The notes beneath the pieces were generated by a model, which worked only from the letters and a program-made list of their open reading frames with translations, had not been told where the DNA came from and made no database searches. A DNA stretch of 9,500 bases from a virus (taxonomy: Duplodnaviria; Heunggongvirae; Uroviricota; Caudoviricetes). The position numbers and the translations under genes were made by a program. The stretch lies in IMG/VR virus record IMGVR_UViG_2648501498_000020. The stretch is one strand, 5' to 3'. Positions 2,941 through 9,500 of this stretch are shown here, one piece after another; position 1 is the first letter of the stretch; each line of letters starts with the position of its first letter.

Positions 2941-3042
2941 AATCCCCCCTGTTGCGTCTGCTGAAAATATTCACAAAATAAAGCGCTACCCGAAGCCGGA
3001 CGGACTTATCCGGTGCTGTATGGACATTAACGAGGTAGCCCG

Positions 3043-3309
3043 ATGCAAGCTGTTTTTTCTTCCCCGTCTCCCGCCCCTGTGACGCCACTGATGCCGCTGC
3101 CGGACATCACGCAGGAGCGTTTTTTACGTCTGCCGGAAGTGATGCACCTGTGCGGCCTGTCACGCTCGACCATCTATGAACTCATCCGTAAGGGGGAATT
3201 TCCGCCGCAGGTGAGTCTTGGCGGTAAAAATGTGGCCTGGCTGCACTCTGAAGTCACTGCATGGATGGCCGGGCGCATTGCCGGACGCAAACGGGGGTAC
3301 GACGCATGA
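3043..3309 (+). CDS. vis: Vis, AlpA-family small DNA-binding regulator / excision directionality factor
   Basis: 88-aa ORF; GAGG SD 5-6 nt upstream of the ATG at 3043. [28 protein letters not shown] is a typical AlpA/Xis-type helix-turn-helix. Stop TGA 3307-3309 overlaps a downstream ATG (ATGA). Confidence 0.8.
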
Positions 3310-3905
3310 TGATGCCCGCTCTGCAAAAACTCCCTTTTTCTGGCTTGCCTTTTTCCGGCATTTGCGGATATAGTTTTTCCGCTGCCGCAAAATCGGCAGC
3401 CGGGCGTGAGAACCCGAGCAATCTAACGGCGACATATGACGCGCCATGCGTCTTTTTTTGTGTCGCAATCAACGCCACAGAGCGCCAGATTATGGTGTGG
3501 TGTGTGGTCAGTCGTGCAGATGGCATTCCGTGCATCCTGCCCGCGTCCGCTCATTATGCCGCAGAGTCAATGGTAGCTCAGGCGGGGCAGCCTCCGGGCT
3601 GGCCGGTATCCGTTAGAGCCGGTATTCTCACCCCCGTCTGGGCTATCGCCATCGAGCGTGAGAACTCCGGCGATAGCGTAACCTGCTATCTAACGGAGGC
3701 TGCCATCATGGCTACAACCCTTACCCCCTCACACCCTGAATTTGTCTTTGTGTTTGCGGCTGTCCGTCGCGCAGACCGTCATCCTCGTATCTGTATGCTT
3801 CGCACCGTCGCCGGTGATGAACGCAGCGCCCGCCGTTCCCTTGTCCGTGACTATGTGCTCTCCCTTGCTGCCCGTCTGCCGGTGGTGGAGGTGTCCCGTG
3901 CGTAA
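3306..3905 (+). CDS. long ORF (199 codons from ATGATGATG) spanning the immunity leader; possibly translated only on read-through from vis
   Basis: ORF track gives 3261..3905 (214 aa); the ATG at 3306 overlaps the vis stop (ATGA) and gives 199 codons. It runs across seqA, cI and seqC, and its start lies upstream of the PLE-like promoter, so PLE transcripts could not encode all of it. Coding status uncertain. Confidence 0.35.
3345..3374 (+). promoter_or_regulatory. candidate sigma70 promoter (PLE-like): TTGCCT -N18- TATAGT
   Basis: -35 TTGCCT (3345-3350) and -10 TATAGT (3369-3374), giving a predicted start near 3381, just upstream of seqA. Sequence inspection only. Confidence 0.4.
3406..3429 (+). 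promoter_or_regulatory. seqA: leader target complementary to cI RNA
   Basis: GTGAGAA...TCTAACGG; both blocks are exact reverse complements of the CCGTTAGA and TTCTCAC blocks at 3610-3631. Confidence 0.5.
3560..3650 (+). ncRNA. cI: cI immunity RNA region (approximate bounds) containing seqB
   Basis: seqB CCGTTAGAGCCGGTATTCTCAC (3610-3631) is complementary in two blocks to seqA (3406-3429) and seqC (3658-3696), with GC-rich hairpins around it (CAGCC-TCCG-GGCTG). Matches the P4 arrangement as I recall it. Ends not determinable from sequence. Confidence 0.5.
3658..3696 (+). promoter_or_regulatory. seqC: second target complementary to cI RNA, overlapping the kil ribosome-binding site
   Basis: GTGAGAA (3658-3664) ... 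TCTAACGG (3689-3696); the 3' block overlaps GGAGG (3695-3699), the SD of the ATG at 3708. Confidence 0.5.
3708..3905 (+). CDS. kil: Kil-like small protein (65 aa; in-frame internal start of the long ORF, eta possibly nested)
   Basis: ATG 3708 preceded by GGAGG (3695-3699) at 8-nt spacing; [65 protein letters not shown]. First start codon with a strong SD downstream of the cI region. kil/eta naming is from memory of the P4 literature. Confidence 0.5.
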
Positions 3906-4185
3906 TAAAAAAGCCCCTCAGACCGTCTCAGCACGTCATGACGCCCGTGAACACCTCAGCATTGAGGCTTACCATAAGCTCAACCGCGCCAGCGCCGTAT
4001 CCCGGTTTGTTGGGGGTGATTTGATTCACCGTGAACTCTCCGGTCTGCATCAGCTCTACATTCCGCATATTTTCAGCTACCTGAATGAAGATATTGATTT
4101 TGTGCTGAATGAGCTGAAAGCCAAAGGCCTGTGCCGCGATTTTCTCGCCCAGCAGAAAGACCGGGGAGACAGGACGCATGTTTGA
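3898..4185 (+). CDS. epsilon: Epsilon, anti-repressor of helper prophage (derepression of P2-like helper)
   Basis: GTG start at 3898 with GGAGG 8 nt upstream, overlapping the kil stop; gives 95 aa, the length I recall for P4 Epsilon. The ORF-track version (3742..4185) has an implausible N-terminal extension overlapping kil. Confidence 0.7.
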
Positions 4186-5103: not shown

Positions 5104-5976
5104 ATGAAAATGAACGTAACCGCCACCGTCAGCCATGCACTCGGCCACTGGCCGCGTATTCTCCCGGCGCTGGGGATTCAGGTGCTGAAAAACCGTCATC
5201 AGCCCTGTCCGGTCTGTGGCGGGAGTGACCGCTTCCGTTTTGATGACAGGGAGGGGCGCGGCACCTGGTACTGCAATCAGTGTGGTGCCGGTGACGGCCT
5301 GAAACTGGTTGAAAAGGTGTTTGGTGTTTCCCCGTCCGACGCGGCCGCAAAGGTGGCTGCCGTGACCGGCAGCCTGCCCCCGGCTGACCCGGCAGTGACG
5401 GCCGCCGCCGGTGCTGAAACAGAAGCCGCCCGGAAGAACGCCGCCGCACTGGCACAAACCCTGATGGCGAAAACCCGTCCCGGAACCGGTAACGCCTACC
5501 TGACCCGCAAGGGCTTTCCCGGCCGGGAATGCCGGATGCTGACCGGCACACACAGAGCCGGTGGCGTGAGCTGGCGTGCCGGTGACCTTGTGGTGCCACT
5601 GTATGACGACAGCGGCGAACTGGTTAACCTTCAGTTAATCAGTGCTGACGGCCGTAAGCGCACCCTGAAAGGCGGACAGGTCAGGGGCACCTGTCACATC
5701 CTTGAAGGACAGAATCAGGCCGGAAAACGTCTGTGGATAGCGGAGGGATACGCGACCGCACTTACCGTGCATCACCTGACCGGTGAAACGGTGATGGTGG
5801 CGCTTTCTTCCGTGAACCTCCTTTCTCTGGCCAGCCTTGCCCGGCAGAAGCATCCGGCCTGTCAGATTGTCCTTGCCGCAGACCGTGACCTCAGCGGTGA
5901 CGGCCAGAAAAAAGCCGCCGCAGCCGCAGATGCGTGTGAAGGTGTTGTTGCCCTGCCGCCGGTCTTCGGTGACTGA
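5104..5976 (+). CDS. alpha: Alpha N-terminal fragment: zinc-binding + TOPRIM primase domain (ends at in-frame TGA)
   Basis: AGGAGA SD 8 nt upstream; CPVCGGSDRFRFDD...WYCNQCG zinc-binding motif and EGYATALT primase motif. Ends ...PVFGD then TGA at 5974-5976. Confidence 0.85.
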   Translation: MKMNVTATVSHALGHWPRILPALGIQVLKNRHQPCPVCGGSDRFRFDDREGRGTWYCNQCGAGDGLKLVEKVFGVSPSDAAAKVAAVTGSLPPADPAVTAAAGAETEAARKNAAALAQTLMAKTRPGTGNAYLTRKGFPGRECRMLTGTHRAGGVSWRAGDLVVPLYDDSGELVNLQLISADGRKRTLKGGQVRGTCHILEGQNQAGKRLWIAEGYATALTVHHLTGETVMVALSSVNLLSLASLARQKHPACQIVLAADRDLSGDGQKKAAAAADACEGVVALPPVFGD

Positions 5977-6066: not shown

Positions 6067-7437
6067 ATGAGCGAAGCGGAGTTTTCCGCCATGAGTACCA
6101 GCGAAAAGGCCATGCGTATCTATGAGCATTACGGCGAGGCGCTCGCGGTCGATGCCAACGGCCAGCTTCTGTCCCGCTATGAAAATGGTGTCTGGAAGGT
6201 GCTGCCGCCACAGGACTTTGCCCGGGATGTGGCCGGGCTGTTTCAGCGTCTGCGCGCGCCGTTCTCCTCCGGGAAGGTGGCCTCCGTGGTGGACACCCTG
6301 AAGCTGATTATTCCGCAGCAGGAAGCCCCCTCCCGCCGCCTGATTGGCTTTCGTAACGGCGTGCTCGACACGCAGAGCGGCACGTTCCACCCGCACAGTC
6401 CGTCACACTGGATGCGCACCCTGTGCGATGTGGATTTCACCCCACCGGTGGAAGGGGAAACGCTGGAAACCCACGCCCCCGCGTTCTGGCGCTGGCTTGA
6501 CCGTGCCGCCGGTGGCCGTGCGGAAAAACGCGACGTGATTCTGGCCGCACTGTTTATGGTGCTGGCAAACCGCTACGACTGGCAGCTCTTTCTGGAGGTG
6601 ACCGGTCCCGGCGGCAGCGGCAAAAGTATCATGGCCGAAATAGCCACCCTGCTGGCCGGGGAGGATAACGCCACGTCGGCCACCATCGAGACGCTGGAAT
6701 CCCCGCGTGAACGTGCCGCGTTAACTGGCTTCTCACTGATACGCCTGCCGGACCAGGAAAAATGGAGCGGCGACGGAGCCGGACTCAAGGCCATCACCGG
6801 CGGCGATGCGGTGTCCGTTGACCCGAAATACCGGGATGCGTACTCCACGCACATCCCGGCGGTGATTCTGGCCGTGAACAATAACCCGATGCGCTTCACC
6901 GACCGCAGCGGCGGCGTGTCACGCCGGCGGGTGATTATTCACTTCCCGGAACAGATAGCCCCGCAGGAGCGCGACCCGCAGCTTAAGGACAAAATCACCC
7001 GCGAGCTGGCGGTCATCGTGCGTCACCTGATGCAGAAATTCAGCGACCCGATGCTCGCCCGGTCACTGCTTCAGTCCCAGCAGAACTCAGACGAGGCGCT
7101 GAACATCAAACGGGATGCCGACCCGACGTTTGATTTTATCGGCTATCTGGAAACCCTGCCGCAGACCAGCGGCATGTATATGGGGAACGCCAGTATCATC
7201 CCGCGTAATTACCGTAAATACCTCTATCACGCCTATCTGGCCTACATGGAGGCAAACGGCTACCGGAATGTACTCAGTCTGAAAATGTTCGGGCTGGGGC
7301 TACCGGTGATGCTGAAGGAATACGGACTGAATTACGAGAAGCGCCATACCAAACAGGGGATACAGACCAACCTGACACTGAAAGAGGAAAGCTACGGCGA
7401 CTGGCTGCCAAAATGTGACGACCCTGCGACAACCTGA
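6067..7437 (+). CDS. alpha: Alpha C-terminal fragment: D5/SF3-type helicase (Walker A GPGGSGKS) plus C-terminal DNA-binding region
   Basis: Same reading frame as 5104..5976; 30 stop-free sense codons lie between the TGA and the ATG at 6067. Walker A GPGGSGKS, Walker-B-like VILAVNN. No convincing SD before 6067. Confidence 0.8.
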   Translation: MSEAEFSAMSTSEKAMRIYEHYGEALAVDANGQLLSRYENGVWKVLPPQDFARDVAGLFQRLRAPFSSGKVASVVDTLKLIIPQQEAPSRRLIGFRNGVLDTQSGTFHPHSPSHWMRTLCDVDFTPPVEGETLETHAPAFWRWLDRAAGGRAEKRDVILAALFMVLANRYDWQLFLEVTGPGGSGKSIMAEIATLLAGEDNATSATIETLESPRERAALTGFSLIRLPDQEKWSGDGAGLKAITGGDAVSVDPKYRDAYSTHIPAVILAVNNNPMRFTDRSGGVSRRRVIIHFPEQIAPQERDPQLKDKITRELAVIVRHLMQKFSDPMLARSLLQSQQNSDEALNIKRDADPTFDFIGYLETLPQTSGMYMGNASIIPRNYRKYLYHAYLAYMEANGYRNVLSLKMFGLGLPVMLKEYGLNYEKRHTKQGIQTNLTLKEESYGDWLPKCDDPATT

Positions 7438-7493: not shown

Positions 7494-7796
7494 GAAGGTG
7501 AACAATCTACTGTTCACCCTTCACCGTATATTCACCCGTTATCACACTGAAATTAAAAGAGAAAAACGAAAGGTGAACAGTGTGAACAATCAAATCAAAA
7601 AAAACTTTTTTCTCCCTGTGTGATTTTCAGTACGGGGGATTAATCACCGGTATGAGTCACACCAGCAGAATGCCGGAGGTGAAGAATCGAATGTTCACCC
7701 TTCACCCATTATTCACCACCTATCATACTGAAATAAAAGGAGAAAAAAGAAAGGTGAACAGTGTGAACAGTTCTTTCGAAAAAAAATTTTTTTCCT
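7494..7796. repeat. crr (cis replication region): two ~120-bp direct repeats about 181 bp apart, each with TGTTCACC / GGTGAACA iterons
   Basis: Repeat 1 about 7494-7615, repeat 2 about 7675-7796 (GAAGGTGAACAATCTACTGTTCACCCTTCACC... vs GGAGGTGAAGAATCGAATGTTCACCCTTCACC...; both end AAAGGTGAACAGTGTGAACA + A/T run). Matches my recollection of P4 crr as two 120-bp direct repeats separated by 60 bp. Confidence 0.75.
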
Positions 7797-7939
7797 GTAC
7801 GATATAGCATCAATCCAAGTAAAAATGCGCTTTAATTTCACATTAACTTACAGCCATTGGTATACAATTAGGTATACGCACAAAAACTGAATTAAACAAA
7901 ATCGTTAAAAATCAAAGCAATATAATATTTATTCAAACT

Positions 7940-7962
7940 CCGCCAGCCCACCAAAATTCTCC
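7940..7962 (+). other. possible att core: CCA-terminated motif resembling the 3' end of a tRNA/tmRNA
   Basis: ATTCAAACTCCGCCAGCCCACCA has a TTCAAA T-loop-like segment, an acceptor-like segment and a terminal CCA, about 210 bp upstream of the int start. No full tRNA can be folded: upstream sequence is AT-rich. Speculative. Confidence 0.25.

Positions 7963-8229: not shown

Positions 8230-9500
<1,271 letters not shown>

Follow-up and report, generated by a model that had tools for sequence, protein, structure and literature searches.

The window, by which we mean the whole 9,500-nt stretch analysed here, is 97.7% identical to the satellite phage P4 between positions 450 and 7792. It keeps the P4 gene order, with psu, delta and sid on the minus strand followed by vis, eta/kil, epsilon, orf151, orf106 and alpha on the plus strand. 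The products of psu, delta, sid, vis, kil, epsilon, orf151, orf106 and alpha differ from those of P4 by 0–11 amino acids each, and the immunity region (3200–3950) is 96.8% identical to that of P4. Judged by its sequence, the element is a P4-like satellite prophage of E. coli and the region is an immunity region of the P4 type. One point of difference from P4 is alpha, the primase-helicase gene, which is a pseudogene in the window: an in-frame TGA at 5974–5976, where P4 has TGG (W291), splits it into ORFs at 5104–5976 and 6067–7437. Because of this nonsense codon the satellite copy is probably replication-defective, and the circuit described below would be unable to control replication any longer; in such a copy it may survive mainly through the silencing of kil or through recent descent. 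No tRNA or tmRNA gene was found within the window.

The gene vis (ORF88 in the P4 annotation; 3043–3309, plus strand) encodes an AlpA-type regulator/excisionase (Pfam Phage_AlpA, E=7e-21) one residue different from that of P4. Its stop overlaps the start codons of eta in the sequence ATGA (3306–3309), which points to vis as the first gene of an immunity-insensitive late transcript. The eta reading frame, taken from the ORF list (3306–3905, plus strand; 197–199 aa from ATGATGATG at 3306–3314), spans the whole RNA circuit, and its in-frame 3' part is kil (3708–3905, plus strand), whose 65-aa product is identical to P4 Kil. Pfam returned no match for the 65-aa kil segment, and for Eta only the Ash family (Phage_ASH). 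According to PMC10111431, eta is in the P4 model translated only from the upstream late promoter. The Shine-Dalgarno sequence of kil is GGAGG (3695–3699, plus strand), with 8 nt between it and the ATG (3708–3710).

The leader is placed as in P4, 3' of the promoter PLE and 5' of kil-epsilon-orf151-orf106-alpha, colinear with the left, or alpha, operon; kil is the first translated gene 3' of PLE. A promoter scan found a PLE-type, presumptively constitutive promoter, TTGCCT-18 nt-TATAGT (3345–3374, plus strand), identical to that of P4, and position 3345, at which the region singled out in the original prediction begins, is the start of the -35 hexamer of this sigma-70-like promoter. The Rfam isrK model (RF01394) matches from 3381 to 3458 on the plus strand, end to end and including the terminator, with 72 bits against a gathering score of 50; this 5' leader RNA would comprise two hairpins, the upstream target seqA and the terminator known as t1 in the P4 literature. 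A terminator scan placed t1 at 3438–3459 (plus strand), with GACGCGCCATGCGTC forming the hairpin (3438–3452), followed by T7. The hairpin and T run lie directly 3' of seqA and correspond to the terminal hairpin of the isrK model. A further plus-strand match, c4-a1b1 (RF03163; 3368–3420), reached 49.5 bits, above its gathering score. The CI RNA gene, of the C4 antisense RNA family (RF01695), occupies 3566–3653 on the plus strand as a precursor, with 74.5 bits against a gathering score of 45 and all model positions (1–87 of 87) matched; in its predicted fold (MFE -48.1 kcal/mol) a 17-bp outer stem encloses two inner hairpins. A permissive Rfam search of 3250–3950 gave nothing besides C4, isrK and c4-a1b1. 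The putative Rho-dependent terminator region timm was placed at 3708–3864 (plus strand), inside kil and with two substitutions relative to P4, by transferring from P4 (NC_001609) the coordinates of the fragment X51522:8365-8209, which is the P4 timm fragment (PMC3177188). In published work C4 is identified with the CI RNA of P4, and the seqA leader with IsrK (PMC3632133, PMC4825925, PMC10111431).

The original prediction had proposed a cI RNA with a recognition element, seqB, complementary to two leader targets, and the sequences are as it described them. On the plus strand, CCGTTAGAGCCGGTATTCTCAC at 3610–3631 is a two-block reverse complement of both targets. The upstream one, seqA (GTGAGAACCCGAGCAATCTAACGG, 3406–3429, plus strand), reads GTGAGAA-N9-TCTAACGG, with box 1 at 3406–3412 and box 2 at 3422–3429, and the downstream one, at 3658–3696, reads GTGAGAA-N24-TCTAACGG. 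The arrangement is far above chance: the pattern GTGAGAA-N(5-30)-TCTAACGG has three matches in the window (two on the plus strand and one on the minus) against 0.00 expected, and none of 200 dinucleotide shuffles reproduced this. By itself TCTAACGG occurs three times against 0.20 expected; GTGAGAA by itself is less telling, with four matches against 1.0 expected. Exact complementarity amounts to 7+8 nt between seqB and seqA and 7+9 nt between seqB and seqC. The second duplex is one base longer than originally proposed, through the pair U3609-A3697, so that G3695, G3696 and A3697, three of the five Shine-Dalgarno bases, lie inside it. With this base included, seqB runs from 3609 to 3631 (plus strand; box 2 (U)CCGUUAGA, box 1 UUCUCAC) and seqC from 3658 to 3697 (plus strand; box 1 GTGAGAA at 3658–3664, box 2 TCTAACGGA at 3689–3697), and box 2 of seqC overlaps the kil Shine-Dalgarno sequence. 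That the second target ends in the GGAGG belonging to the ATG at 3708 had been part of the prediction, and the duplex reaches even further into it, to 3697.

The predicted folds display these boxes. In the CI precursor, which by its C4 match contains seqB as had been supposed, box 2 forms the loop of hairpin 2 and box 1 is the single strand 3' of that hairpin; in the seqA leader, box 1 is the loop of hairpin 2 and box 2 is single-stranded. Co-folding, proposed earlier as a check, agreed with the model in part. The unconstrained two-RNA MFE structure contained all 15 seqA pairs, and for seqC only box 1, box 2 being paired in another register with CI unfolded. In the same structure the loop of CI hairpin 1, CCUCC (3591–3595), paired with the Shine-Dalgarno sequence; an anti-Shine-Dalgarno role for this loop was considered and rejected because its sequence varies among relatives (CCTTC, CCCTC, TCCTC).

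In P4, the CI RNA, a product of processing of the untranslated leader, pairs with seqA and seqC and causes premature termination (PMC4825925, PMC3632133, PMC10111431). The RNA immunity switch is therefore already known from that phage, and all the sequence-level defining features of P4 immunity and of the C4 clan are present in the window. The claim that the region has the architecture of P4 immunity is upheld by the identity to P4 and by the C4, isrK and c4-a1b1 matches, with the qualification that the element is not P4 itself but an allelic variant in box 2. Its parts list, seqA, seqB and seqC, was right as far as it went, and the predicted intrinsic terminator 3' of seqA (hairpin and T run) would also belong to it. 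The suggested effect of seqC pairing, a block of kil translation coupled to Rho-dependent polarity, agrees with the published P4 model, in which such a block exposes a Rho-dependent terminator (Forti et al. 1999, cited after PMC10111431), and is in that respect not special to the window. The overlap of the target with the kil ribosome site likewise belongs to that model.

We consider P4-type antisense-RNA immunity to be the overall explanation of the locus, with a probability of roughly 0.93, and nothing in the sequence contradicts it. The promoter at 3345–3374 would constitutively transcribe an untranslated leader, which would be processed to a small, stable and highly structured CI RNA of the C4 family within 3566–3653. 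This RNA would present one short box in a hairpin loop and a second in the adjoining single strand, and would pair in trans with nascent leaders made by its own element or by superinfecting elements carrying the same allele. Pairing would take place at seqA, just before the intrinsic terminator, and at seqC, over part of the kil ribosome-binding site, leading to more termination in the leader and to a block of kil translation, and the untranslated kil RNA would then be accessible to Rho at timm (about 3708–3864). In the lysogen the expected outcome is that kil, epsilon and the alpha replication genes are silent. Transcripts arriving from the upstream late promoter would escape, as ribosomes on eta, coupled to vis through the ATGA at 3306–3309, would traverse the whole region. 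For this window the sequence anatomy, family membership, complementarity and covariation (see below) are established. Processing by RNase P/PNPase, action in trans, terminator activity and Rho dependence would carry over by analogy with P4. Knowledge of the P4 processing enzymes, the trans action, the activity of t1, t4 and timm, and the Rho dependence reportedly comes in part from work by Forti (1995, 1999, 2002), Sabbattini (1995) and Briani (1996, 2000). In P4, CI RNA supplied from a plasmid was reported to repress a kil reporter from which its own seqB had been deleted.

What is peculiar to the window is the allele: the recognition sequence differs from that of P4 by four bases, and the difference is matched at all three sites. 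Between 3340 and 3720 there are 19 differences from P4, and 12 of these fall in the 24 box-2 positions (hypergeometric P=6.7e-12). Box 2, which is TTCACAGG/CCTGTGAA in P4, is TCTAACGG/CCGTTAGA here, so that at each of the three sites four of eight positions have changed (3612, 3613, 3615 and 3616 in seqB) with pairing kept. The locus, gene order and geometry are those of P4, and the promoter, CI stems, box 1, Kil and the Shine-Dalgarno overlap are identical. The allele alters Eta residues from NSQA to NLTA, SCE to SVR and YSQE to YLTE; since the box-2 changes are nonsynonymous in Eta and yet preserve pairing, the RNA constraint dominates the coding constraint. Predicted box-2 duplexes have energies of -11.9 and -14.4 kcal/mol with the cognate CI RNA versus -4.3 and -6.2 kcal/mol when the P4 CI RNA is placed on the same targets. 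Because box 2 differs in half of its positions at all three sites, the immunity specificity is probably different from that of P4, or cross-immunity would at least be weakened. The P4-like region as such is present in 1056 of 5426 complete E. coli genomes, about a fifth; the exact 41-nt seqB segment of the window occurs in 99 of these 5426 and the corresponding segment of P4 in 206. The box combination of the window was found in four of the first 80 IMG/VR loci described next. P4-like satellites of E. coli could be sorted into immunity types by their two-box allele.

Relatives were collected by using the eta translation as a query against IMG/VR, which gave 80 P4-like loci, and then a second query, which gave 80 more, among them a lineage whose Eta identity is as low as about 60%. 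The covariation alignment comprised 82 P4-like sequences, 51 of them distinct. Across it, 99.1% of alignment cells form standard pairs for seqA-seqB (15 pairs) versus 41–52% when the partner is slid, and for seqB-seqC (16 pairs) 99.3% versus 35–53%. Nine of the 15 and nine of the 16 pairs, respectively, have changed on both sides, and in neither duplex was the covariation score reached by any of 500 shuffles. One pair alternates between G-C and G-U in 18 of the 51 distinct sequences, which fits pairing of plus-strand RNA and not a DNA operator. In the same alignment the CI stems are almost invariant and the boxes variable.

In a set of 78 distinct P4-like sequences box 1 has four alleles and box 2 has 13 variants, and together they form 20 combinations. 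Full complementarity to seqB is found for seqA in 74 and for seqC in 76 of them, spacers of 23–26 nt being allowed in the matching of seqC. The spacers are in fact fixed, at 9 nt in seqA and at 24 or 25 nt in seqC, and in 77 of the 78 the downstream box ends at the GG of GGAGG or GGAGA. The divergent P4-like elements, with about 60% Eta identity, show the same geometry and the same Shine-Dalgarno overlap, and the same box alleles recur across lineages that are this distant in Eta. One divergent locus (L256 in our IMG/VR set) has box 1 ACGCCAA in seqB and TTGGCGT in both targets, with the geometry unchanged; box 1 is consequently not restricted to the three GAG/GGA/AGG permutations seen elsewhere. 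Three further loci (L137, L147 and L260) have seqA boxes of an immunity type other than that of their own seqB, with seqC fully matched; in a fourth (L165) seqA is mismatched and seqC is degraded too. The three hybrids would be obtainable by a single crossover between seqA and cI, and they suggest that a mismatched seqA is tolerated. Only three pairs of P4-like elements from the same genome were available; the seqB allele is shared in two of these (L139/L142 and L260/L262) and different in the other (L149/L179), and these pairs support no rule of exclusion between like alleles. A pattern scan of genome contigs for the CI hairpin proved too GC-generic, giving chance high-GC matches and one plausible enterobacterial locus.

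If anything here is new, it is how broad and modular the set of alleles is and how three sites come to change together. The large census of P4-like elements in PMC8628076 leaves out the immunity RNA and has no such allele survey. We put forward only tentatively, and with more doubt than confidence, that the P4-type recognition code is a modular and highly polymorphic system, which would imply strong diversifying selection and a dedicated route for switching. If this were true, selection would act on immunity specificity among co-circulating satellites. With the sites in the order A1-A2...B2-B1...C1-C2 and matched changes at all three, no single crossover can deliver a switch; a coordinated route might be, for example, short-patch conversion among the three repeats by way of tolerated intermediates with a mismatched seqA, and such intermediates are observed in L137, L147 and L260. 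The allele series also offers natural orthogonal antisense RNA/target pairs on one conserved scaffold.

Standard annotation gives a different picture of the region. The P4 RefSeq record (NC_001609) has at 3041–3457, the equivalent of window positions 3489–3905, a 137-aa ORF labelled 'transcriptional repressor', a label that goes back to the old idea of a cI protein and is out of step with the biology. In E. coli genomes the only PGAP label over the region is 'Icd-like protein' (6467–7066 in our locus L202), and eta has as its counterpart, in a relative with 99.8% identity, a 199-aa 'Icd-like protein' of RefSeq. Neither NC_001609 nor the PGAP annotation of L202 has a CI/C4 or IsrK-like RNA feature, and no RNA gene is annotated in the RefSeq immunity region of the relative in E. 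coli MDR_56. The regulator is in this sense invisible in standard annotation, where only the 'Icd-like protein' appears without an RNA gene. A classic antisense-RNA immunity circuit can be recognised here from sequence alone.

The P4 label bears on a reading in which the repeats are DNA operators for a protein repressor, or protein-coding repeats in Eta, for the 'transcriptional repressor' CDS covers the equivalent of 3489–3905 and seqA and seqC share the eta reading phase, both encoding REN...LT. We find this reading scarcely credible: seqB has the inverted orientation and codes for unrelated residues, the substitutions that define the allele are nonsynonymous with base pairing kept, and the G-U wobble substitutions fit only plus-strand RNA; moreover the kil segment lacks a Pfam match and Eta, with Phage_ASH as its only match, has no known repressor fold. 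If the pairing is accepted as one of RNA, the three sites might still act only in cis, as alternative leader structures of a classical attenuator and without a processed, trans-acting RNA. All three do lie on one transcript within 300 nt, and local leader structure is predicted to sequester box 2 of seqC and the Shine-Dalgarno sequence in part. Two things make this very improbable, namely that the seqB boxes occupy the loop and single strand of a full-length C4 fold (-48 kcal/mol) whose stems are nearly invariant, and that P4 immunity acts on superinfecting genomes and hence in trans (PMC4825925).

A third proposal would add a layer to P4-type immunity and not replace it: the short RNA ending at t1 (3381–3458), which carries seqA, might itself act in trans. 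It is possible that such an IsrK-like RNA titrates the CI RNA or remodels the read-through transcript, by analogy with the short IsrK of Gifsy-1, which activates translation of the ORF that follows it. This would accord with the full-length isrK match of 72 bits, with the description of the seqA RNA as a structural homologue of IsrK and of a processed RNA 3' of IsrK (PMC4825925), and with TraDIS data in which the IsrK-like elements of two P4-like prophages were required in S. Typhi (PMC3632133). Against it stand the four of 78 relatives in which seqA is mismatched to its own seqB and box 1 of seqC is kept in all four (box 2 in three of the four). Mismatches in seqA with seqC mostly retained suggest that seqA is the more dispensable partner, and we regard the additional layer as unlikely. 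The IsrK sRNA of Salmonella Gifsy-1 (RF01394) is a near relative of the leader segment at 3381–3458, which matches the whole model with its terminator; it differs in that translation of the Gifsy-1 read-through transcript is switched on in trans by the short RNA (PMC4825925), whereas the homologous P4 segment has been described as a target of the CI RNA.

Besides P4, whose antisense-RNA immunity we take the locus to share, the closest known systems include phiR73 and the c4 loci of P1 and P7. Heteroimmune P4-like variants are already described: phiR73 is a heteroimmune relative of P4 whose specificity has changed through substitutions in seqB that have their match in seqA and in seqC, the same principle of matched changes at the three sites as in the window. 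Its specificity is said to have been treated by Sabbattini et al. in Virology in 1996, under the title 'Immunity specificity determinants in the P4-like retronphage phiR73'. In P1 and P7, the a'/b' boxes of c4 pair with a1b1 and a2b2, icd translation is repressed and Rho-dependent termination occurs before ant; the c4/icd/ant model of these phages likewise couples occlusion of the Shine-Dalgarno sequence to Rho-dependent polarity. The likeness extends to the Rfam family and clan (C4, c4-a1b1), to the use of two boxes for recognising one target upstream and one downstream, the latter at the ribosome site of an Icd-like gene, and to heteroimmunity through box changes; RefSeq, too, names eta/kil 'Icd-like'. 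At the DNA level P1-like phages show only about 72–74% similarity over about 180 nt. The controlled genes are an antirepressor, ant, in P1 and P7 and the kil, epsilon and alpha replication genes here, and the former are plasmid prophages, the latter a satellite.

The flanks of the element were compared with its 99.8% identical relative in E. coli MDR_56, which is integrated at ssrA and has HEPN and DUF262 genes in the hotspot between psu and int. Beyond psu, positions 1–423 of the window match neither P4 nor this closest E. coli relative with its HEPN and DUF262 genes. P4-like satellites carry a variable cargo hotspot (Rousset et al., PMC9122126), and the unmatched stretch fits such a hotspot. 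At the other end, similarity to P4 stops at 7792 and the match to the right end of the MDR_56 relative reaches 7954. Within that match lies an ssrA-3'-like sequence, TTCAAACTCCGCCAGCC (7933–7949), of which the full CCACCA end runs to 7954; it looks like the att end of the element. Judged from this ssrA-like end (7933–7954) and the MDR_56 relative, the integration site is ssrA here, in contrast to leuX in P4. It is followed by a terminator resembling that of ssrA, with a duplicated GCCCGCACGGCGCAA unit, and another P4-type integrase gene starts at about 8174 (ATGGCAAGACAAACC..., MARQTKPLSVKEIESAKPK...), which suggests tandem islands at ssrA. This gene is cut at about 8230 by an IS21-family insertion sequence (8230–9500), of which Yersinia and E. 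coli phage records contain copies with 99% identity; it encodes IstB on the minus strand (8296–8958; Pfam E=2e-100).

Apart from the immunity boxes, substitutions relative to P4 are dense at 2810–2935 (about 44 in 200 nt, with surroundings 98–99% identical). This cluster is intergenic and lies upstream of both vis and the late promoter; where P4 repeats the motif CTTTAAGTGG, the window has a palindrome-like CCAGAGCGTTTTAAAGCTATCTGG. The divergence may represent a changed, putative regulator-binding site.
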